The notes beneath the pieces are model-generated. The model did no database searches. It was not told where the DNA came from and saw nothing but the letters and a program-made list of their open reading frames with translations. 64,000 nucleotides of DNA from Octopus vulgaris. Taxonomy: Eukaryota. Each line of letters begins with the position of its first letter. The first letter of the stretch is position 1. The position numbers and the translations under genes are program-made. Below are positions 5,228-62,441 of this stretch, piece by piece. The stretch lies in NCBI GenBank assembly GCA_951406725.2, contig OX597832.1:9114001-9178000 (forward strand), read 5' to 3'.

Positions 5228-5378
5228 ATATTATATATTTACACATACACATACACACACTATGCCAACGCTATAAGTTTGCATAATCTTTGTTTCAGAA
5301 AATATTATATATTTACACATACACATACACACACTATGCCAACGCTATAAGTTTGCATAAACTTTGTTTCAGAAAATA
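5228..5378. repeat. ~74-bp tandem duplication at the edge of a maT-like relic
   Basis: Two near-identical copies of atatttacacatacacatacacacactatgccaacgctataagtttgcataa.ctttgtttcagaaaata. Confidence 0.85.
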
Positions 5379-9129: not shown

Positions 9130-10351
9130 TGCGTGTGTATTTGTGTTTTTCTAAAGCCGAGGTGTATATATCGTTTGTCGTAGAGTCGTTCGGAAGGGGC
9201 CTGCTTTTGTAATAAAGATAGTTTCTTTACTTACTCGTTGGCTCGAGGTTGTATCGTCCCTGAATTGGTAGAGGGGGAAATCCTGAAGCCTGGTGTTTTG
9301 TTGTTGGTGCAAGTATCTATGCGTTGGCTGAATGCTATTTTCCTGTTTAGGGGAATTTTTATCTGGGATCTGTGCAGGACCATTCTTTTTCGCAAACTAT
9401 TTTTTGTTTGGCCTATGTATTGCTCTTGACACCCAGAGGAGGCTAGTGTGTGTATCAGGTTCTGCGAAGCACATTTGAAGTTTCTTTTCACACCGTTGTC
9501 CCTGTTTGAAGGTGAACTCTGATCTCTCAATTAGATAATTGCATATCCCGCAATTGGGTCTTCCACAATTTTTTACTGTCGGCTTCTGTGTTGAAGAGCG
9601 TATTCGGGCTTGTGTTAGGAGACTTTTCATAGATTTAGACTGTCTCTTGCTGTTTTATGATCGTTTGTGTTTGGATAATTGTGTTCATTCTGTGGTCTTT
9701 ATTTAGCAGGGGTATGTTTTGGAGGATGGTGTCGAAGGCTTCATTGTTGAGAGGGTTGTGTGTGGAGATGTAGGGTAAGGCTTTTCGTCGTAAATATTTC
9801 TTTGATTTGGGATGTCTGAGTTCCTGGATGTTGAGTTGAAAGGCACGTTGAATGCATATGTCAATAAGTGAAGGTGGGTAGTTCCTGGTGATGAGGGTAT
9901 CTTTTAGTTCTTGTAGTCGTGTGTCTCTGGTGTTTGCATTAGAAACTATATTACAACCCTTTTTGCTAGATTGAAGGGGATATTCATTGTAGTGTGTCTG
10001 GGGTGGCATGAATTGAATGGAAGATATTGCTTAGAATCTGTAGGCTTATAGTATATATCTGTTTCTATTACATTATTAGATTTCTTAATGAGGATATCGA
10101 GGAAGGGGAGTTGATGCTGGTTATATTCCATCGTGAATTGGATGTTTACGTCCAGTCCATTTAATATTGCTTCGAATTCTTTGAGTTTCTCTATATTTTC
10201 ATGCCAAAGAATGAAATAGTCATCTAGATACCTCTTCAAGTTGGGTTCTATGTAGAGGGAGAAAGTGCTGCCATATCTTTCTAGAACCTTACGATACAGA
10301 CTGATTTCTAGATATCCCATGACTAGGTTGGCAATAGAGGGGGCCATTCGC
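9130..10351 (-). mobile_element. Penelope-like retroelement (Neptune-type): frameshifted RT + GIY-YIG endonuclease, 5'-truncated
   Basis: ORF pieces give RMAPSIANLVMG, KRYLDD, LPFLDI, IYYKPT (PLE RT), RNYPP, linker CGRPNCGIC (CxxxxCxxC typical of Neptune), and QYIGQTKNSLRKRM (GIY-YIG). Several frameshifts; ends at the (TA)n tract at ~10353. Confidence 0.92.
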
Positions 10352-10404
<53 letters not shown>

Positions 10405-10522
10405 TACTTGGAGAAGAGAAATAGAGAAATAACGCGTGCGTTCGGTCATATAATAATATAAATAAATATATGCATATATACATACATATATGTACATACT
10501 TACATATACATGTATATATACA

Positions 10523-10581
<59 letters not shown>

Positions 10582-10586
<5 letters not shown>

Positions 10587-11157
10587 TACAGGACACCACA
10601 AATAAACGTAGAACACAACGAGCAACGAAACATAAAATCAAACAAGGAAACGGACTTTTTTTTTTAAACAACGAAAAAACAGAGTACAGGACAAACAATA
10701 CAAGGAAAATTCCACTTCATCAGCTGCCCCTGATGCGTGTTTCGAAGGTAAGGGCAGAACACGGCCAGGCCGAAGCAGTCCTTCCTGCAAAAGGAATTAA
10801 GTAAAATTCTTTTGCAGAGTGGTAAAACAAGTGAAAAGAACAGGACGTAAATGCAATACAAATGAAGAAAAAACAGCAGAAAAAACAGTACAAATAAAGA
10901 AACAGGACAGGGAACCAACAATAATGGCTTTTTTTGCCTAGACGGTGGAAAAATTACTTACATCTACATGTATATATATACATGCATATATATATATGAG
11001 TACAGGGCACCACAAATAAACGTAGACCACAACGAGAAACGAAACATAAAATCAAACAAGGAAACGGACATATTTTTAACAACGAAAAAACAAGGAAACG
11101 GACTTTTTTTAAAACAACGAAAAAACAGAGTACAGGACAAACAATACAAGGAAAAAC
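10582..11157 (-). repeat. Partial direct duplication of a probable PLE-associated repeat between (TA)n tracts
   Basis: gagtacagg.caccacaaataaacgtaga.cacaacgag...acaggacaaacaatacaaggaaaa occurs at ~10584-10710 and ~10998-11156. Confidence 0.7.
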
Positions 11158-16283: not shown

Positions 16284-16579
16284 GCTACTACTACTTCATT
16301 CGTCGGATAAGATGCCGCATATTATTGCTTCCGTTTCATTACGTTCGGTACGAGTTAAACATTGCATCTCAGTACGAGCTAAACATTGCGTCTAATTCTT
16401 TCACGATCGGTAAAATTAAGTACTAGTCAAGAATCGTAGTCAATATAACGGGCTAACTCTATACTGTAAGATTGCCCCGCATCAAAATTTGGGGATACTA
16501 TAAGACGGCAGGCTTGCAGTATTTTTAGCGTGTCTGACAAAATAGCGAGCGGCATTTCTTCATATTCTAACCTCAAATA

Positions 16580-16798
16580 GCTATTTCTATCTCTTTACTA
16601 CCCACAAGGGGCTAAACACAGAAGGGACAAACAAGGATTACATCGACCTCAGTGCGTAACTGGTACTTATTTAATTGACCCCAAAAGGATGAAAGGCAAA
16701 GTCGACCTCGGTGGCATTTAAACTCAGAACGTAGCGGCAGCCGAAATACCTTTAGGCATTCCGGCCGGCGTGCTAACGATTCTGCCAGCTCGTCGCCT
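16580..16798 (-). mobile_element. tRNA-derived SINE (family A, Meta-domain-like)
   Basis: Head GGCGACGAGCTGGCAGAATCGTTAG, B box GAGTTTAAAT, body GCCTTTCATCCTTTTGGGGTC..TAAGTACCAG similar to the MetaSINE domain, tail GAAATAG. Older copies flank it (16300-16560, 16940-17165). Confidence 0.85.
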
Positions 16799-17923
16799 GT
16801 TGCCAATACTGCTTACTCTACTTTGCTTCACGACTGGGGTAAAAGAAATAAATATAAGGTCTATTCTGGCGTCAATGGCATCGGCTAGTTCCTCCCTTCG
16901 TTATTTCAGGCCTATAGCCAATATTTGAAATCAATATTATTAAAGGTCGACCAGCTATCAGAATCTTTAGAATCCTGAAGAAAATGCTCAGCCGCATTTC
17001 TTGTGACTACCTACGACCTCAGCTCAGATACCTCTGAGAGAGATTGTGCCACTTATCACTTCGTGGTCGATATAAGAAAGTACCTGCTTCAGCATTGATA
17101 CGTATCGAATAATAGACTTATCCCCCCCTCACCCAATTACTGGCCTCGTATAAAAATTTGTAGCAATAATATCTTTTAACGAAGTAGTTGACTTTTTGAA
17201 ACCTAGTTGTTTTGAGATGTTAATAATTTTGACTGTCAGAGTCAGTGATAAACAGCTTTAGCAAACATTTTAGGAAAATTAAAATAAATATAATAACACG
17301 GTAAAATAGTATTCTACGTCGGGGGAAAGTAATGTAAACTGTCGTGAACAATTTGTTAGTAAATACAGTCAGGAATTTCTCTAAAAATAAAACGAAAATG
17401 ATGCAAAATGAAAATATAAGTTATGAGATTCTCACCAATTAAAGTAGTAGAAATTTCAGCACAGAGACCTCCAGATAGATTATTCGACACTGTTTATATA
17501 ATCAGTTAATTTCTACTCGCATCTCAGACTCGTCCAACATTAAACGGGTTATTATCAAAAACATTCCACTTTTGAAGTATGATGTAGCTTATAATATTTA
17601 TTAAATATTACGTTGCAAGTTAACAAGAGACAAACTAAAAACTAAAGCATCATCGCGCTGAGGATATAGAGCAAAAAATAATTGCTGCTGCGTTCAGACT
17701 AGCGCATACATAAACAGTTGTAAGAATATATGTGTATGTGTGTGTGTGGCCACGTGTGTGTGTACATATATATATATATATAGAGAGAGAGAAGAATATA
17801 AATGATGTATACGTACATACAGGGTTTGTGCACTGATATATATACACTATTGCTGACAAATACACATGTAATTCTATGCATAAATATATATATATATTTC
17901 TCTCGATGCACACACACACGCGA

Positions 17924-19763: not shown

Positions 19764-21532
19764 ATCATCATCATCGTCATCATCATCGTCGTCGTTTATC
19801 GTCCGCTTTCCGCGCTGGCATGGGTTGGACGATTTAACTGAGGACTGGCGAAACAGATGGCTGCATCCGTCTCCAATCTGATCTAGCAGAGTTTCTACAG
19901 CTGGATGCCCTTGCTAACGCCAACTACTCCGAGAGTGTAGTGGGTGTTTTTACGTGCCACCAGCACGCGGGCCAGTCAAGCCGTGCTGGCAACGGCCATT
20001 CTCAAAAGGTGTTTTTTACGTGCCACCTGCTCAGGAGACAGTCCAGCACGGAAGCCAGCCAGCTTACGTGGAAACGCTCACGCTCAAATAGTGCTCTAGC
20101 GCTCCGCTAGCACGGATGCCAGTGATCGAATTTTATTTCGATTTCGATTTCACTTAGTTCAACAGGTCTTCAGAAGCTGAGTTTAGTGTCCAATGAAGGA
20201 AAGGTAAGTGGGCTGGTTACACCCCTGGCAAAAGCCACAGATAATTGTCTCACTTGGCTTGCTGGGTCTTCTCACGCACAGTATATTTTCAAAGGTCTCG
20301 GTCACTAATCATTGCCTCGGCGAGGCCTAATTTTCGAAGGTCGTGCTTCATCACCTCATCCCAGGTCTGCCTGAGTCTACTTCTTCCACAGGTTCCCTCA
20401 AACGCTAGGGTGTGGACTTTTTCACACAGCTATCCTCATCCATTCTCGCCACATAACCATGCCAGCGCAGTCGTCTCTCTTGCACACCACATCTGATGCT
20501 TCTTAATTCCAACTTTTCTCTCAAGGTAGTTTCACTCTGTTGTGTATGCACACTGACATTCCACATCCAGCGGAGTATACTGGCTTCATTCCTTGCGATC
20601 TTACGCATGTGCTCAGCAGTCACGGTCCATGTTTCACTGCCATGCAGCATGGCTGTTCGTACACATACATCATACAGTCTACCTTTCACTCTGAGCGACA
20701 GGCCATTTGCCACCAGCAGAGGTAAGAGCTCTCTGAACTTTGCCCAGGCTATTCTTATCCTAGCAGCTACACTTTCAGCACACCCTCCCCCGCTACTGAC
20801 TTGGTCATCTAGCTAACGGAAGCTATCAACTACTTCTAGTTTTTCTCCCTGGAATGTGGCGGAAGTGGTTCTCGGCACATTTTAAGTGTTTATTGCTGTT
20901 GAGCATCTGCCACATGCAGAAACTATCTTCCCAGTTAACCTTCATTTGATATTGCTGCATGGGTCCATAACTTACACTGGGTACATCTTATAGAGTTTCT
21001 ACCTACGCCTTTTCTGCAGATCGAGCAGGGCCATCTACCTGAAGGGTGTTTTGGTTTGTCTGCCTTCCTACTAATTAGGACTTTGGTTTTAGCTAGATTG
21101 ACTCTAAGGCCCTTTGATTCTAATCCTTGCTTCCACATCTGAAACTCCTATAGTTCTGATATTGACTCAGCAATTAGATCAAGGTCAGCAGCATAGTCTT
21201 GAATTCCTCTGTTATTGCCTGGGGGACTATGATAAATAGGGGCGGGGGCTGAGGACTGAACCTTGTTAGACCGCTACCTCTACCCGGAATTCGTCACTGT
21301 ACTCGTTGCCAACACTCGCCTTACTGACAGCGTCCTTGTAGATGGCTTGAACAACTCTCACTAAACATTCATCTATCCCTATTTTCCTCATTGACCCCCA
21401 GATAAGGGATCAGGAGACCCTGTCAAATGCTTTCTCCATGTCAACGAAAGCCAGGTTTAGCTTTGGCTAGGTATTTCTCGTGCAGCAATTTTACAAGAAA
21501 TATAGCATCTGTGAGGCTTTTCCTTGGCACTG

Positions 21533-26859: not shown

Positions 26860-27750
<891 letters not shown>

Positions 27751-29000
27751 TTATATATACATATATACGGCGGGATTCTTTCAGTTCCGTCTACCAAATT
27801 CACTCACAAGCCTTTGGTCGGCCCGAGGTTATAGTAGAAGACACTTGCCCAAGGTGCCACGCAGTGTGACTGAACACGGAACCACGTGGTTGGTGAGCAT
27901 GTTACTTACCACACAGCCACTCCTACGCCTAAATCAGTCAGTATTTTAGATCTACGATAAATTGTAGGAAAAATAAGTGATAGTTAATTTTTATGTCACT
28001 TACATTCTCATGCCTGTAGACTATATAGATATCTTTGCTGTGTGATAGCGTGACATTTCTTAGCTTAGCAAGAGTGACCTTGGATGGATTGATGTTTGGT
28101 GGAACGACGTCATTGTTGTCACTGAGAAAAAGACCAGCATGGTGAAGTAATTTTTTTCTTCTTCATTTTCTAACACATTGTTTCTAGGATCATGAAAGCT
28201 GCTTGAAAGTGTGGAGGAGATTTAGATGCTATTTCGTGAAAGTAAATCGACGTTTCACAGAATCCCTGGAAGAAATGTTTTGGATAAAGCAGATCTTTAT
28301 AAAGATTATAAATTGATTGCGGATTTGCAATGACAGAGGAAGGAGAAAACATAAGAAGGGAAAAAAGATGCGAATTAAGAGAGAGATACGGAGATAGGAG
28401 ATTAATTGTTAGAAAGCGCAGAGAAGAAAGGCAGAAAAGACTAACAGAAAAAAGTGCTATAGAGGAATATAGAGAAAGACGCATTGCTAAAGAAGTAGAA
28501 GTGATAGGACTGAGAGGTAGAAAGACAGAGTGGATAACATAAAGATGGGAAGAGAAAAGAAGGGGAGGAAAAAAACCGGATGAAATGAGGCGGAATCAAA
28601 ATGAAGCCAATTTTCAATTGAAGAAGGATTTCTGCAAACGAATAACGTTAATGACGGTGTCAAGCGGTGATTATGCAGTCCACCAACAATTTTTTTTTTA
28701 GGAATGCGATTGAATGGATGCAAACACATTTAACACATGGAACATTACAAAATTGTAATTGATTAAAATAGGAGGTGATTAAAATATTTCTAATGCTGGC
28801 AAGTATTATTCTCTTCATACTTCACGTCATATTTGAAGGACACTGCATATCGTGTATGTTTTCAAACATATGTTATCATACGAAACGTGCCGATAGGGAA
28901 CGATCGGACTAACATCGCTTTATGGGTGCGCAGGTGGATTACAGTGACACATTTCCGGGCTCTGCTTGCAATAAACACGCAGATTAAATGTAAATAATAA

Positions 29001-31497: not shown

Positions 31498-31812
31498 CTC
31501 TCAAAATACAAAGACCTGGAAATAGAGGTAACTAGAATGTGGAATCTGAAAACAGAAACAATTCCTATCATAGTAGGAGCATTAGGCATGATAAAAAAAT
31601 ATTCAGACAAATACATAACAAAAAGACCAGGACTTACAAACACATATAACATACAGAAAATTGCACTACTAGGCACTGCACACATCCTACGCAGAACACT
31701 TTCCATACAATAACCATCAGAGCATCACAACAAATCACAGCACATACCCAAGGCACACAGAGCTGCGCTCGGTAGTGAAGTGAAAGCACGCTATAAAAAT
31801 AAAACTACTGAA
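31498..31812 (+). mobile_element. R4/Dong-type LINE 3' end (second subfamily, well preserved) between (TAA)n tracts
   Basis: Open frame LSKYKDLEIEVTRMWNLKTETIPIIVGALGMIKKYSDKYITK.PGLTNTYNIQKIALLGTAHILRRTLSIQ*, then 3'UTR and (AAT)n. Confidence 0.85.
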
Positions 31813-32149: not shown

Positions 32150-32540
32150 TCAATCTCTGTAGATTTTCTTAGATAATATCAGGATGGAGTTTGGACTTTC
32201 AAAATGTGCTGTGATCGCGATAGGAATAGGGAAGCTGGTCAGAACAGAAGGTGTATGCATATCAAGTGGTGAGATGGTAAAATCGATTGGATCCGAATCC
32301 GGATATAAAAACCTGGAATTACTTGAGGCAAATGGAATTAAGCATAGTGTTATGAAGAAGACGATTAGGACGGAAAACCGGCGGTTACTGATCGAAATAT
32401 TAGATTTAAGGTTGAGTGCTCGACTCATAATATCGGCATTATACCGCGAACACTCGCAATGGTTCGGCATGAAGCCGGTATTCTGAAGTGGACAGAGGAT
32501 GAGTTAAAGGAATACGACAGTAAGACAAAAAAAGCTCTGT
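32150..32540 (+). mobile_element. R4/Dong-type RT thumb fragment
   Basis: ORF 32184-32486 MEFGLSKCAV...GKLV..EG...GYKNL.LLE matches the IGMEFGLDKCA...YKYLGILE segment of R4-clade RTs. Confidence 0.75.
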
Positions 32541-33526
32541 GGAGGAATATTAAAATTATTGAGATACCTATCCGAACGCAAGGAAAACTTGCTAGAGAAA
32601 TTTAAGGAATTTGAACTCAGAATGTAGCGACGGGTATTTCGTGCAGCGCACTAACGATTCTGACAGCTCACTAGCGATTCTGTCTTAACAGCAGCAGCAG
32701 CAACAACAACAACGATAATAATAATAATAATTCGTCACTTGTTAGAGAAGCTGTCGAGTGATTCTTTTGTCCCCCACTACTGAAGCGAACATCACCACGA
32801 CGGTCCCATATTTCTTCTCCTTGGACACATAGGTTTTGTTTTTCCACATTGGTTTTAGGCATTTTTCTATCTGTCGCTCTGATGCCTGCCCCATATTCCT
32901 ATTTTTCGCTCAAACTCTTTTATATAGAACTGTCCTCAAATTAATTTCTTACTGGAATTTCTTTGCTAGGAATGTTTAGATCCACTTGTCTGACACATTT
33001 CTCCGACATGCATTTTGCATTCATGAATTCATTTTCGACTTGATTTGCATTTCTTGATTTTATTGCATTTTTGTCAATTATGTTGACAATTATGGTGGTG
33101 TTGGACCTGCTGCTGGCACCAGCTATAGCGTGGAGGTGTCAGTGTTTTCGTTTGTATAGTTGGCTTTTGTATTTTTTGTTTTGTTTGGTTTCTACGATAG
33201 TGAAGGGGAGGACAGAAGGAAGGGAATCTCGTTTTCATGTTTCACGTGCGCTAATAGTCTTGTTGCTGCTGCTGCTACACCAAACACTGTCTTTCACGAC
33301 TTGGCTGTCCTCTCTTCCGGACAACCGGCTCTTCCATTCAGTAGACGGACAATTGTCTTTGGCTATTTTTGATTTTAGCAAAACAAATTAGGATCGCCTT
33401 AGCCCAGACACCGAAAAGAACTTGGAAAAGAACTAACCAGCTACCCAAGTTCCTGGTTTGTTTAACTCCGTAACAATAACAAATGTAAAATGTATGTGTA
33501 ACAGCAAAACTTAAGTAATAATAAAT

Positions 33527-40400: not shown

Positions 40401-40720
40401 AAAGAATTCTTTCCTGTCCTCGTTTTTTATGAAGTTGGACTGCGGTATTAAGAGGAGACCGCAACTGTTTCTAGCCGTGATTTTTCCGATTATTATTGCA
40501 ATTTAAATATTGATTTGAAATTATGGTACAATGTCATCAATTTTTGGAGATGAATTAAGTCAATTATTTTCTGTTATTTATTTTTCCTAAGACGGTGAAA
40601 TGGGATTTCATGCGAAGTACAATAATTCAACTTTCAGCAAGTATATTAAATGCAAAGAAGTTTCGACGTGATCTCGTTTATAGTCGTAACTGCATTCGCG
40701 GCTGTGTCCTAGATATATAC

Positions 40721-40942
40721 CTATTTCTTTATTACCCACAAGGGGCTAAACACAGAGGGGACAAACAAGGACAGACATAGGTATTAAGTCGATTACATCG
40801 ACCCCAGTGCGTAACTGGTACTTAATTTATCGACCCCGAAAGGATGAAAGGCAAAGTCGACCTCGGCGGAATTTGAACTCACAACGTAACGCAGACGAAA
40901 TACCGCTAAGCATTTCGCCCGGCGTGCTAACGTTTCTGCCAG
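40721..40942 (-). mobile_element. Young family A SINE
   Basis: Near-identical to the units at 48274-48440. Confidence 0.9.
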
Positions 40943-41039
40943 ATATATACCATTTAACCGTTATCGTTTTAGTCATCAGAGTGCAATGATGTGGGAGCCC
41001 CGCCTTGAAGAGTTTCCAAGCGAATGAATAGAAAGCAGT

Positions 41040-46328: not shown

Positions 46329-47906
46329 TCTGAATCTGATGAATGCACAATGCTTGTCTAAGTTTTCCTGATCACGAAGAAGATCAATGACTGTTCTTAA
46401 TTAACGGAGTTTAAGAATTCTTCCAACAAAATCAATGTCTTCCCTGTTTTAATCAGACCAGGAAGGAGAGACACCATGCCAGAATAGATTCGAATAATCA
46501 TAAGAGGGTACAACTCAAGGAAATATATGTGAATATTCCAGGATAATTATCAGGAATATAAGAGATAGGTTTTCACCCTATAGATAGCTGCTGTTTGCAA
46601 GTAGCGGATACTAAGCCTTACAATAGTAAGTTCAATAAAATATAAGATCCGTGTAATTACAGATTTTGGCATTTTTCATTCATACCCAATTATCATTGTA
46701 CCGCTGCCCAGCTGTGTATGCACATCTTTTCTTGTATGATGTTTGGAAAAATTGTTGTCTGTCTCATGAAGTCAAGTCACTGGATATCAGTCAGATAGCT
46801 CTGTGTTGCTTAGCATTCTAGGCCTCAAGGATTCCTAATTAATTCAGTGTAAATCATAAATTGGGTTGGATCAAGTAGCAGGGATAATGCTTTTTCAGAA
46901 ATAACTTTTTACATGAGTGCATGATTTCCGACAGAAAGGAATCAGTGCGACTTTCTCAGACTGGTGGAAGTTTGCGAAGCGATAAACTCTTTAAATGATT
47001 CATAATCAATTAGAGTAGACCTTATTATTAATGAAGAGGTGAAATTGTTTGATAGACACACGATGCGATTTTGTGGGTGCTAGAAATAAGAAAAAAAATC
47101 CCATTTACATTAGTATCTTAAGCATTCACGGAGGACTCGAATTTTAAAGACATCCATTTATGGTCCGATGAGGACTAGTAAACTTGTACGAATGAAATCT
47201 ACATTACATATGTTTGTATTATTTATTAGTCCAGCGGAAACTAAATATCGTAAAATGTATACATTTTCGACATATAACTGTATAAACAGCGGGATTAAGA
47301 TCAATAAACACAAATTAGTACTTCTAGTTAAAACCCTATACTGGCAGATGAACGTATTCACTCCATGTATACTTTTATATAGTGTTTGATAATTAACATA
47401 TGGTGGTGCCGGGTTTAAAACGAAGAAAATTATAACAATATAATATATTTAAAAACGTTATAAAGTTTGGTTTGGAACAATAAACAGAAATTACATTGTT
47501 TGCTTTCTTGCCTGTTTCTCTTTCTGCAGTTCCTTATTTCAATTCTTATCCTAGTTGAATATTGCTTCTTCCATTTTAAATTGTCTCAGTAGGTTTCAGT
47601 CATATCTCCATGCGTTCTACTGTTGAAAACACTTGGAATGCGGAGATTAGAAAACGCTAAAATCAATGACATAGCAACAAGCCTGATTTTTTTATGTCAG
47701 GTGCGTCATGAAAGTCGAGGGATTCAAAAAAATTCATTCAGTCTTTATGGCTATAAATAACAGGCACTCTTTTATAAATCGGAGTGTAGTCTTCGATTAA
47801 AATCAGCGGCCCATGTTTCCTCAGAATTGTCAGTCTATTTAGGTGGAATAGCCAATTAACGACGGTCGTATAGGTGATTAGCATAATCTGATTCAACTAA
47901 CTTTAT

Positions 47907-48493
47907 GATTTCTTTATTGCCACAAGGGGCTACACAGAGAGGGGTCAAACAAGGACAGACAAACGGATTAAGTCGATTATATCGAACACAGTGCGTAACT
48001 GGTACTTAATTTATCGACCCCGAAAGGATGAAAGGCAAAGTCAACCTCGGCGGAATTTGAACTCAAAACGTAGCGGCTGGAGAAATACATATTTCTTTAC
48101 TACCCACAAGGGGCTAAACGCAGAGAGGACAAACAACGACAGACAAACGGAATTAAGTCGATTATATCGACCATAGTGCGTAACTGGTACTTATTTAATC
48201 AACCCAGAAAGGATGAAAAGCAAAGTCGACCTCGGCGGAATTTGAACTCAGAACGTAGCGTCTGACGAAATACCTATTTCTTTATTACCCACAAGGGGCT
48301 AAACATAGAGGGGACAAACAAGGACAGACATAGGTATTAAGTCGATTACATCGACACCAGTGCGTAACTGGTGCTTAATTTATCGACCCCAAAAGGATAA
48401 AAGGCAAAGTCGACCTCGGCGGAATTTGAACTCACAACGTAACCGCTAAGCATTTCGCCTGGCGCACTAACGTCTCTGCCAGCTGTCCGCCTT
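47907..48493 (-). mobile_element. Trimeric head-to-tail array of family A SINE
   Basis: Three ~185-bp units (47907-48088, 48089-48273, 48274-48441) and a single tRNA 5' half (48442-48493). Confidence 0.92.
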
Positions 48494-49659
48494 ATTCAAC
48501 TAACTTTAGTTAGAATTGGTCATGTCCTATATAAGTCAGAGAGTTTGGGTAGATATGACCCAAGCCTACTGAAGCGGATTAAAAGGGAAGAAGCAATATT
48601 CAACTAGGGTAAGAATTGAACTAGGGAGCTAAAGAAAGAGAAACAGGTAAAAAGCAAACAACGAAATTCTCTGTTTATTGTTCCAAATCAACCTTTATAA
48701 TGTTTTTAAATAATAATTGTATAATATATTTTGGAATTCAGACACCTTCCAATAAATATCTGACAAGTAATTTTAAGTATATTTATTCCAAATTTCACAA
48801 AACGGTTAAGAAAAGATTAAGAAACAATATATATATTTTTTTGTTTCTCGATGTGTGTACTTCTTCAAAACAATTTCAACAATTTCTTTCTTAAACAAAT
48901 ATAATTGATAAATGTATAAACAAATATATAAATAAATAAATACCATGGACAAATTAGAAAACGATATTTAACTGAAAGAAATATAGCAAGAAAATTAAAT
49001 AATAAGAAATAATTACAAAATACAATGAAATCGAGCTGAAATCAACTCAGTGACAAAGTTACATATGATGGACGATGCTGTAGGGAAAATAAGTTTCACC
49101 TTTCAATGAATTTAATATATATTAATAGTTAGAAAGAAAACAACGTAGCTTGCTTTTCTAATAAAGAAATTTGATATCATAAATCATGAAAATTACATTC
49201 ATCCACCTCCTTCCATTGTCCTGCTGCTACTTTCCACGTCGACTCCTTCATCGCCATATAATGTGCCAAATTCTAATTATCATTAAGAACAATAAAGAAA
49301 TTTAAAAAAAAAACTATGAAGGATTGTTGTAACAATGATGGAGACAATGTTTATGCTGATGTTGATGACGATGAAGATGATGATAATATTCAGGCGTGGG
49401 CAAGACAGCGTGTGTGCGTCTTTGGGAGGAATAATAATAGCACGAGCCTCGTGAGTTTGCAGTGTAAAAACGTAATGTAGCTCAGTAATCTGTCCTCCAT
49501 CAGCTACCACCATCATGCTAATATCATCATCATCATCATCACCACCACCACCACCACCACCACCACCACCACCACTAGCAACAACAACAACAACAACAAA
49601 TTTTAAAGCGTCATAATCATTAAAATAATATGAAAATTTGAAATAAATTTTTCAGTTTT

Positions 49660-53149: not shown

Positions 53150-53830
53150 TCAGAAGTAGGAGTAGACTGTTTTGAGAGCCGTGTCTGTGCTAATATAGTA
53201 CTTATACTGTGATACTGATTTCACCTTATAACGATCCAGCCTTTTGAGGATAATAACACTGTAGGACTGGGGGTCGTACAGCGCCAGATAGAACCATTCT
53301 ATTGACGACTTCAGTATAAAAAAGCAAAGTGTTTTCGCTGCAGGTTTACAGGACATATAAGATCACACTGGAAAAATAGAATGGTAAGGAAATGGAATAA
53401 ACAAGAAAAAAAATAGTTTGTCAACAAGATAAGTTGTGACTACAACTAACATAATATTCGGGAATGTGAGAATTGAAAACACGAGTGTAAGGATGCTACT
53501 AGACACAGGATGTGATATTACAATCATAATCGAGAAATCAAGGGAACAAATGCTACTAGACACAGGATGTGATATTACAATCATAATCGAGAAATCAAGG
53601 GAACAGATGGGTAAAGCAAAATCATATATTTCAAACAAAATAGTGTGCGGTGTCATAGGAAGAAAATTATACTTCACTGGCGAACGTGTTTGTAATATAA
53701 TGCACATAGGTCGAACCGGAAAAGTGATTGCTTGAGTGTTGAAAAAAATCCAGGAACATATGGAGAAATTAAATTTGAGGGATACATCCATAAACACTTT
53801 CTGCAATAGCGTAAACAGACCAGTCAAACA
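53150..53830 (+). mobile_element. Gypsy-type LTR retrotransposon gag-protease relic
   Basis: AKCFRCRFTGHIRSHW (CCHC knuckle, last C mutated) at ~53323-53372, followed by the aspartic protease motif MLLDTGCDITII. Confidence 0.75.
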
Positions 53831-58136: not shown

Positions 58137-58625
58137 TTACATCTGTTGAAGTTCGCTCTCACAGAATCTCCTGGAGATGTCTGCCTCTACTCCAGAACTG
58201 ATGGGTTCCTTTTCAATCTTGTACGCCTCGGACCAAAAACCAAGACCAAGTGAAATTTTATCAGTGACATTGTCTTCCCAGTTAGGTAATCCGTAAACCA
58301 CAGGTTGTTTACTTTCACCTTGCCTAGTATGTACTCCACACGCATCCTTCTTAAAAGTTTCGGTAATGGCAGTGTGCAAACAACAAATAGGTGAGGCGAC
58401 AGACCGTTCTCTTTTAATACTTACCTCTCCAAGCTTTTCTCTCCATGCTCTGAGTTCGGTTCTCCACGTTGTCAGGATATTATGGGAGATCTTAAGCAGT
58501 TTAAGGCATTCAATAATCCACGTATGTGGAACCATGTCATACGATTTCCTGTAGTCCACCCATGCCATCGCCACATACTTGCCATGGAGAGGTTTCTGTT
58601 CCCATCTGCTAGCTAAATTTTCATG
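58137..58625 (-). mobile_element. R4/Dong-type RT fragment adjoining (TAA)n
   Basis: WEQKPLHGKY and MAWVDYRKSYDMVPHTWIIECL...WRTEL...EVSIKR. Confidence 0.8.
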
Positions 58626-58628
58626 TGC

Positions 58629-58743
<115 letters not shown>

Positions 58744-61319: not shown

Positions 61320-61770
61320 GTAGCGACCTGGTACAATCGCTAGCAGGGCAGCCAAAATGCTTAACGGTATTTCGTCTGCTTAATCGTTTGTGTGAGGCTG
61401 GCGAGCTGGCAGAAACGTTAGCACACCGGGTGAAATGCGTAGCGGTATTTCGTCTGCCGTTACGTTCTGAGTTCAAATTCCGCCGAGGCTGACTTTGCCT
61501 TTCATCCTTTCGGGGTCGATTAAATAAGTACTAGTTACGCACTTAGGTCGATATAATCGACTTAATCCGTCTGTCTGTCTGTCCTTGTTTGTCCTCTCTG
61601 TGTTTAGCCCCTTGTGCGTAGTAAAGAAATAGATATAGGTATTTCGTCTGTTTTTCCGTTCTGATTCCAAATGCCACCAAGGTCGAATTTGTGTTTCATG
61701 TCCTCATCATCGATAAAATCAATACCGGTCACGTACTTGGGTTGATTTAATTGACTTACTTCCTCCCTAA
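61320..61770 (+). mobile_element. Young family A SINE (61395-61632) nested in an older family A copy
   Basis: Old head 61320-61380, complete young copy, then the old remainder starting ggtatttcgtctg at ~61638. Confidence 0.85.
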
Positions 61771-62441
61771 TGTCACAGACGTTTCACCTTTAGCAGAAAG
61801 ATTTGCTAATGCTAAGATTTCGGTATTATTATGCCGGTTAAACCGATTCATACTTGCTTTATTATACTCTCAAGATAATATTTTGCTCAAGATAATATTT
61901 AGGGACGCAATGAGTATTCCATAGTTCAGTTTATTGCTATACTGCGGTTCAACTGCTCACAGCCGCCTCCGTTACATGCAATCCATAAAAGTGAATACCA
62001 TAAAAAAAAAAGAAAATCACAGTAGCGCATAAAGAAAACTACAGCATCATAGACGTTCCCAAGACAACAAAATATTTTTTAAAAAAACACATAAGAATTG
62101 TGAAACAAAAAATATGCGCATAACATTTAACAAGATTTTATTCATAGATTTCTTTATGTATTTTTGAGCAGCTGGTGAAAAAGATTGGGTGAAAAATAGA
62201 TTTACGCTTGAAAATGTCACGTTAGAAGTTTCCATGTTGCGCAAGTTTTTGGGTAGGCTAACAGGTACATGACAGCAATAAACACAGCGTTGGGTTTACT
62301 TTTACTCTTTATTTGTCTATATTAATTTTATTTTATATCGATGTTTATCATGTAATACTGTGAATATTCACGACCATCATCATCACCATCTTTTGCATAT
62401 ATGCATATGTATATATATCTATATATCTATCTATCTATCTA

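Follow-up and report, generated by a model that had tools for sequence, protein, structure and literature searches.

A trimeric SINE array on the minus strand of the window analysed here (the whole 64-kb stretch of DNA) was probably built by serial target-primed insertion, in which one copy after another entered a preferred site in the tRNA-like head of its own family and the later heads were lost by homology joining. What sets the array apart is the combination of a base-exact target in the element's own head, complete tails throughout and mixed lineages.

The trimer (48493-47907) consists of a single tRNA-like head (48493-48444) followed by three bodies, and a tandem repeat scan described it with a period of 185, 2.9 copies and 87% matches. 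The first-pass annotation had reported one head and three bodies joined at 48273 and 48088, and both junctions proved to be exact: on the minus strand, AAGAAATAG runs into GTATTTCGTC at 48273 and AAGAAATAT into GTATTTC at 48088. It had also held that the first unit is broken at the same head site; indeed, unit 1 lacks 13 nt relative to a monomer at 40.9 kb, and this loss begins at the head junction site. A 15-bp target site duplication (TSD) absent from that annotation encloses the whole trimer (48508-48494 and 47905-47891, an exact match). No inner TSD is visible in the trimer, unit 1 showing the 13-nt loss instead. The parts of the array are as follows.

48494-48508, minus strand: upstream 15-bp TSD copy of the outer, presumably first-inserted element; exact match to 47891-47905.
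48444-48493, minus strand: tRNA-like head with an A-box-like motif plus the hairpin loop and its 5' arm; probably part of the oldest, outer element.
48274-48443, minus strand: body of unit 1 together with its tail, probably inserted last; 5' joint without 13 nt of the target site.
48089-48273, minus strand: unit 2, with the GTATTTC target site at its start and a complete tail; variant columns common with a copy at 61.4 kb.
47907-48088, minus strand: unit 3, with the target site at its start and the outer TSD at its end; likely the body of the original monomer.
47891-47905, minus strand: downstream 15-bp TSD copy, an exact repeat.

AATAAA or AGTAAA lies 8 nt upstream of the junction TATTT in units 1 and 2 (48274-48300, minus strand) and in other young tails too, a layout that recalls the polyadenylation signal and terminator of mammalian T+ SINEs, with the A-tail absent. 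An inverted repeat of 163 bp (140/163 identical, 47446-47607 versus 48551-48712) lies asymmetrically around the trimer and is possibly an old foldback or inverted duplication that received the SINE.

The SINE family gave 22 profile matches within the 64 kb, a few of them overlapping. It is short, interspersed and multicopy, as expected of a tRNA-derived SINE, and TSDs of variable length (15, 11 and 13 bp) occur at three of the four young loci, with none longer than 5 bp at the fourth. We take the repeat to resemble an octopus SINE family; octopus tRNA-derived SINEs were reportedly described by Ohshima and Okada in 1994. Two tail types are present, one in the old copies and the other in six young bodies, namely units 1-3 and the copies at 16.7, 40.9 and 61.4 kb, which cluster in the tree (support 90/97, unstarred). 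Unit 1 groups with the unlinked 40.9-kb monomer (support 85/92, unstarred) and differs from it at 5/170 positions, against 23/170 from unit 2 and 18/168 from unit 3; units 2 and 3 differ from each other at 19/168. Unit 2 is closest to the 61.4-kb copy (16/171 differences, with variant columns in common). Units 2 and 3 stand 8-9% from the nearest of the six young copies, and the trimer head 10% from the monomer. Judged by these sequence comparisons, the trimer units derive from different lineages of one tRNA-derived SINE. The first-pass annotation had proposed unit divergence as a way of separating rolling-circle copying from serial insertion, and the outcome is one of mixed lineages: neighbouring units are not mutual closest copies, which argues against rolling-circle copying or local duplication. 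Neighbours in a SINE-derived satellite should be more alike than dispersed copies, and unit 1 is nearer to the dispersed 40.9-kb monomer. A dimeric or trimeric SINE family that amplifies as a single unit would be expected to show numerous dispersed multimers in a constant unit order; the window contains one trimer. Moreover, the head differs from that monomer at 4/39 positions and the body behind it at 5/170 (Fisher p 0.065, not significant), a hint that the trimer head and unit 1 differ in age, as would be expected from nesting. In another old family copy (32606-32672, minus strand), most of the head hairpin including the loop is gone, and the copy ends after the B box.

A nested insertion with its TSD is found at 61321-61802, where an old diverged copy is split at the head site by a complete young copy carrying its own head, with a 13-bp TSD. 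The old body at 61638-61802 has 65% identity to the young copy. The locus is composed of the following parts.

61321-61378, plus strand: head of the old diverged family member (profile positions 4-62, 33.0 bits), ending in the left TSD copy at 61366-61378.
61379-61396, plus strand: 18-nt extra piece resembling, by eye, the start of the young tail module; a possible template jump.
61397-61638, plus strand: complete young copy, its head intact, inserted in the old head.
61638-61802, plus strand: right TSD copy (61638-61650) and the rest of the old element with an old-type tail (profile positions 50-178, 52.8 bits).

This 13-bp TSD lies at the same site as the trimer junctions, and it requires a DNA target. 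The 61.4-kb locus is an insertion into DNA, preserved in place, at the junction site of the trimer.

Two further young copies lie outside the trimer and this nest.

40711-40951, minus strand: young monomer in non-family DNA, whose 11-bp TSD begins with GGTAT, as the head site does; used as reference in the contig and read alignments.
16581-16798, minus strand: young copy, antisense in another old family member near the B box, with CTATTT after its tail; no TSD longer than 5 bp was found.

The flanks of the 16.7-kb copy are an old head (16504-16561, plus strand, a weak match of 7.9 bits) and an old body (16836-16936, plus strand, 17.4 bits). Three of the six young tails are at the head site, one lies in antisense orientation close to the B box of an old copy, and two are in non-family DNA; unit 3 is one whose tail joins its TSD at a sequence different from the head site. 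GTAT follows 4/6 young tails against a background of 0.65%, and (G/C)TAT(A/T)T follows 5/6 against 0.32%, two of the six being, in both counts, junctions picked by the first-pass annotation. A random junction would fall at a head site with a p of 1e-4 to 5e-4 (assuming some 13 heads over 128,000 strand positions; the profile gives 14). One of the four junctions outside the earlier choice is at the head site, about 4e-4 to 2e-3 by arithmetic. Because the other three tails lie elsewhere, the head site is a preferred target and not an exclusive or strictly specific one. R2-, R4- and Tx1-type non-LTR elements have nearly all their copies at one target sequence, and the present family, with 3/6 young tails at the head site, does not behave in this way. 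Of the suggestion that the SINE inserts site-specifically into its own head, the site preference holds, given the mixed units, the clustered contig joints described below and the TSD at 61.4 kb, but strict specificity does not.

Public data beyond the window were surveyed in 4 of 24 listed runs, aligned to the 40.9-kb monomer at 80% likeness; 325,640 and 91,636 contigs aligned to the family reference in two runs. The joints considered are 15 listed of 474, and their counts refer to contigs, which are not copies, in assemblies that favour repeated junctions over unique flanks. Five of the 15 lead from tail plus GTAT to 40881-40891, with the alignment resuming just beyond the head site (84 contigs in X6, from organism C, and 55 in X11, from organism A); in these tail-to-site joints as listed, the sequence between the joined parts is unspecified. 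Old-type tails lead back to 40881-40889 in three joints (31 contigs in X6, 0 in X11), a tail meets a full head in two (27 and 12 contigs), one places a head after position 40813 (5 contigs), and four others are single-contig skips. A tail end joined to any other internal position was found in none of the 15 listed of 474. In X11, 241 contigs continue past tail plus GTAT as head sequence (agreement 0.76), and a further joint table has a new head directly after the site in 2 of 12 listed rows (373 in all); a head directly after the site is the 5' joint expected of full-length nesting. The first-pass annotation had looked to the position of tail-to-head junctions across the genome, and those in public contigs do cluster at the head site among the 15 listed joints of 474. 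The head-site junction recurs in two coded organisms. Little weight is given to two raw-read runs, in which only 24 and 229 reads aligned with one junction read each, and none to runs X15-X20, which contain small shares of the words. Pattern scans for further copies gave 0 and 0 matches in metagenome contigs, 0 in viral contigs and 0 and 1 in prokaryote genomes, the lone prokaryote match (L001, 20 bases, in a rumen bacterial genome) being taken as chance.

Some additional features were seen in the same runs. At 40942, the consensus 5' flank of the family in X6 and X11 is A/T-rich with TTAA before the head, and such a flank is a possible second part of the target signature. In X22, 23 and 47 reads at 40717 and 40775 contain a short tandem unit that combines the head target site with just the tail module of young copies and includes a C variant (CTATTT) resembling the 16.7-kb copy; within the tail module, the starting points of this unit and of the 18-nt piece at 61379-61396 almost coincide.

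The head contains A-box-like and B-box-like motifs, judged by eye against the consensus. ARAGORN found 0 tRNA genes over the 64-kb window, and an Rfam scan of 46500-49500 at E up to 5 gave no tRNA match near the trimer; its two matches were at chance level, none lay inside the trimer and none was a ribozyme, although an undescribed ribozyme would escape such a scan. The head hairpin noticed in the first-pass annotation does fold as RNA (-16.0 kcal/mol, z -3.9, 0/300 shuffles as good, in a 33-nt window hand-picked around the hairpin), but the whole 88-nt head is unremarkable (z -0.52). In an alignment of nine heads, the 12 predicted pairs are kept in most rows; a two-sided change affects only 1/12 of them and the covariation term is +0.4, so covariation gives the hairpin little support. 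The junction sits 1-2 nt 3' of the RNA hairpin loop. In a naive count with the A-box T as position 8, made outside any tRNA alignment, the loop takes tRNA positions 40-45 and the junction falls at 45/46; by this simple counting the loop belongs to an expanded variable region, and the label of anticodon-like loop, for which positions 32-38 would be expected, has to be dropped. The complementarity between the tail and TATTTC is present as described, but the junction hairpin that it would form is weak (RNA z -0.53 and -0.60). A tail-to-target hairpin was likewise rejected as a general feature of junctions (RNA z only -1.9 to 0.0 across five junctions), and so was a DNA hairpin as target signal, which was weak and inconsistent (z -3.4 to +0.3, seven heads, both strands).

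Other routes to the trimer have to be weighed against serial insertion. It is unlikely that a mixed multimer was inserted in one step, either by a reverse transcriptase jumping between SINE RNAs or by the copying of a whole multimeric master gene. The only visible TSD surrounds the whole trimer, as this would predict, and the 18-nt piece at 61379-61396 that resembles the tail module looks like a template jump. However, one-step insertion predicts equal ages, whereas the distances found are 3% between the unit 1 body and another copy, 8-9% for units 2 and 3 against their nearest young copies and 10% for the head against the monomer; internal T4 runs are present today in units 1-3, and a master multimer must itself first be built, in a manner that the 61.4-kb locus illustrates. 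We consider it rather improbable that a rare nested insertion was expanded at the DNA level by unequal recombination or by gene conversion acting on copies or on TSDs. Bivalve TSD-(SINE)n-TSD arrays with one full head, for which recombination between TSDs has been proposed (PMC11481361, in part), lend this route plausibility, and a similar proposal exists for Alu tandem arrays. Moreover, the short tandem reads of X22, with site and tail module only, indicate that arrays do expand at the DNA level somewhere. Against this, such duplication gives near-identical neighbours, whereas the trimer units differ at 11-14% and sort with different outside copies, and it explains neither the young copy with a TSD inside an old copy about 35% diverged nor the GGTAT that starts a TSD in unique DNA.

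The first-pass annotation had also offered a route through RNA that is cleaved in the loop of the hairpin and whose tail is then ligated to its head, the resulting circle or multimer being copied by rolling-circle reverse transcription. The position of the junction just beyond the loop speaks for it, as does the occurrence of the junction in contigs of X11, presumed to be an RNA run, but the junction is equally common in X6, presumed to be a DNA run. Near-identical units and no duplicated target would be expected, whereas the units are far from identical and the 13-bp TSD with an intact second head at 61.4 kb requires a DNA target. An intact second head right after the site, as at 61.4 kb and in the two contig rows mentioned above, is not readily given by a circle, and the loop is off the anticodon position by simple counting. 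Retrozyme-like circular-RNA retroelements carry a self-cleaving ribozyme in each unit and have circular monomer RNA in cells; the scan of 46500-49500 found no Rfam ribozyme here. Taken with these points, the RNA-circle route appears very improbable.

Under serial insertion, the build-up would run as follows. A monomer made of the head and unit 3 inserted first, a step shown by the 15-bp outer TSD. Unit 1 was probably the later of two further copies, which would then have entered GG/TATTTC immediately 3' of the hairpin loop. The 5' end of the newcomer cDNA may have annealed to the identical resident head, or a duplicated head may later have been deleted between repeats. In either case the outcome would be one head, bodies all beginning at the site and no visible inner TSD; without head loss, the newcomer would retain its head and the TSD would stay visible, as at 61.4 kb. 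The 13-nt loss of unit 1 would represent a 5' joint with loss of target at a short GCG repeat.

Three explanations may be considered for the choice of this site. The one we lean towards, at somewhat under even chances, is that the RNA 3' end picks it. A nested copy lies directly before TATTT, because the head target site contains this motif, and its transcript may end in head-site letters, which could base-pair with any sister head on its nicked strand. Pol III termination at TATTT has an efficiency of 42-50%, measured in mammals only (PMC8466645, in part), and base pairing between the 3' end of the RNA and the cleaved target has been proposed for several LINE clades (PMC6007223, in part). With TATTT directly after the nested tail, nested copies may therefore make RNA ending in the target sequence. 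The 61.4-kb copy carries the head-site flank with TATTT, and the first run of four or more T (T5) comes 13 nt beyond its young tail. On the other hand, some transcripts should already stop prematurely at the TATTT of the head itself, a difficulty for the terminator step. The second explanation, an endonuclease of the partner LINE preferring (G/C)TAT(T/A)T-like sites, one of which would occur by chance in the head, is a serious though lesser contender; since old-type tails also return to 40881-40889, plain endonuclease preference fits as well as RNA pairing. Accessibility created by the hairpin or by a Pol III factor would be a rather unlikely cause. Going one step further, we tentatively and with some doubt propose a self-homing SINE, in which nested RNA would end in the target and direct later copies to the identical position in other heads, a loop that would reinforce itself. 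Target specificity would then be inherited through the 3' flank, and no sequence-specific endonuclease would be needed.

A partner LINE sharing the SINE tail was not found within the 64-kb window: a short-word blast of the tail against the window returned only family copies and 11-12-mers, and the LINE-like fragments of the window do not share it. The window DNA is AT-rich, microsatellite-dense and eukaryote-like. Broken LINE-like pieces adjoin (AAT)n tracts at 31498-31810, 32163-32600 and 58140-58630, and the LINE-like 3' end near 31810 runs into AAT repeats with no match to the SINE tail. By their motifs we take these pieces to be Dong/R4-like, and broken frames at 20200-20900 and 9635-10716 (both minus strand), which have no Pfam match at E 0.1, to be presumably RTE-like and Penelope-like. 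As 0/5 translated LINE-like pieces matched Pfam at E 0.1, the Dong/R4-like, RTE-like and Penelope-like labels reflect motif resemblance only. Other repeats of the window include a 780-bp TA tract (26987-27767) and two local tandem duplications that are almost perfect (74 and 57 bp, at 5228-5378 and 53493-53609).

Comparison with known systems, as described in the available parts of the cited papers, helps to place the array. Rodent B2 and jerboa Dip SINEs form frequent head-to-tail multimers of one family, for which SINE-into-SINE integration has been named as a possible origin, and a TATTT terminator is found in Dip and Ves (PMC8466645). In contrast to these SINEs, whose presumed target is the A-rich tail and whose units are full length (PMC8466645), the target here is internal to the tRNA-like head, an A-tail is absent and the inner units are without their first ~50 nt. 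The TSD1-(SINE)n-TSD1 arrays of Scapharca broughtonii have one complete head, later units truncated in the head at a shared position and one outer TSD, but there the tails of the first and inner units are truncated, in the geometry of internal duplication (PMC11481361), whereas in the present trimer all tails are complete and the units differ in lineage. Squamate SINE-derived satellites also have tandem units from a part of a SINE and a longer terminal unit; they are attributed to duplication and homogenisation and reach up to 1000 units (PMC10702118), in contrast to three unhomogenised units and a nested insertion with a TSD. Zepp clusters of Coccomyxa contain retroelements nested inside earlier copies (PMC3446292), but Zepp is an autonomous LINE with about one cluster per chromosome (PMC3446292), and ours is a non-autonomous dispersed SINE with a base-exact site. 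The TSDs, of 11-15 bp, fall within or close to the 7-15 bp given for RTE, and in the account of RTE-related SINEs the RNA 3' end is likewise proposed to steer target choice (PMC6007223); the overlap there is 1-2 bases from a microsatellite tail (PMC6007223), compared with at least 5 bases matching the element's own head in the present case, where 2/3 TSDs start with G and a shared RTE tail was not found in the window. By analogy, the array seems to work like the insertion-built multimers of B2 and Dip and the nested Zepp clusters, and it looks like the one-head arrays of bivalves. In the literature covered, from which subscription journals are mostly absent, no title or abstract opening describes a SINE that inserts into its own head at one constant position. 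The available parts of PMC13282606, PMC4758252 and PMC3531059 contain no description of such arrays, and neither of two motifs is present in one supplement of PMC13282606.

Authors describing SINE multimers often leave open whether one copy was inserted into another or a multimeric template was copied (available part of PMC8466645). The question is decidable here, since the head target is fixed and old and young lineages can be distinguished. Such nests allow subfamilies to be dated relative to each other, and in repeat annotation they would be mistaken for satellites or new families. If endonuclease preference alone is at work, the array is a tidy but modest case. If the inherited 3' end of the RNA picks the site, the family would offer a natural, high-copy test of the extent to which RNA-target pairing directs target-primed reverse transcription, and a route for swapping heads, bodies and tails between SINE lineages. 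If the self-homing proposal is true, the element would hijack resident promoters and disable competitors.
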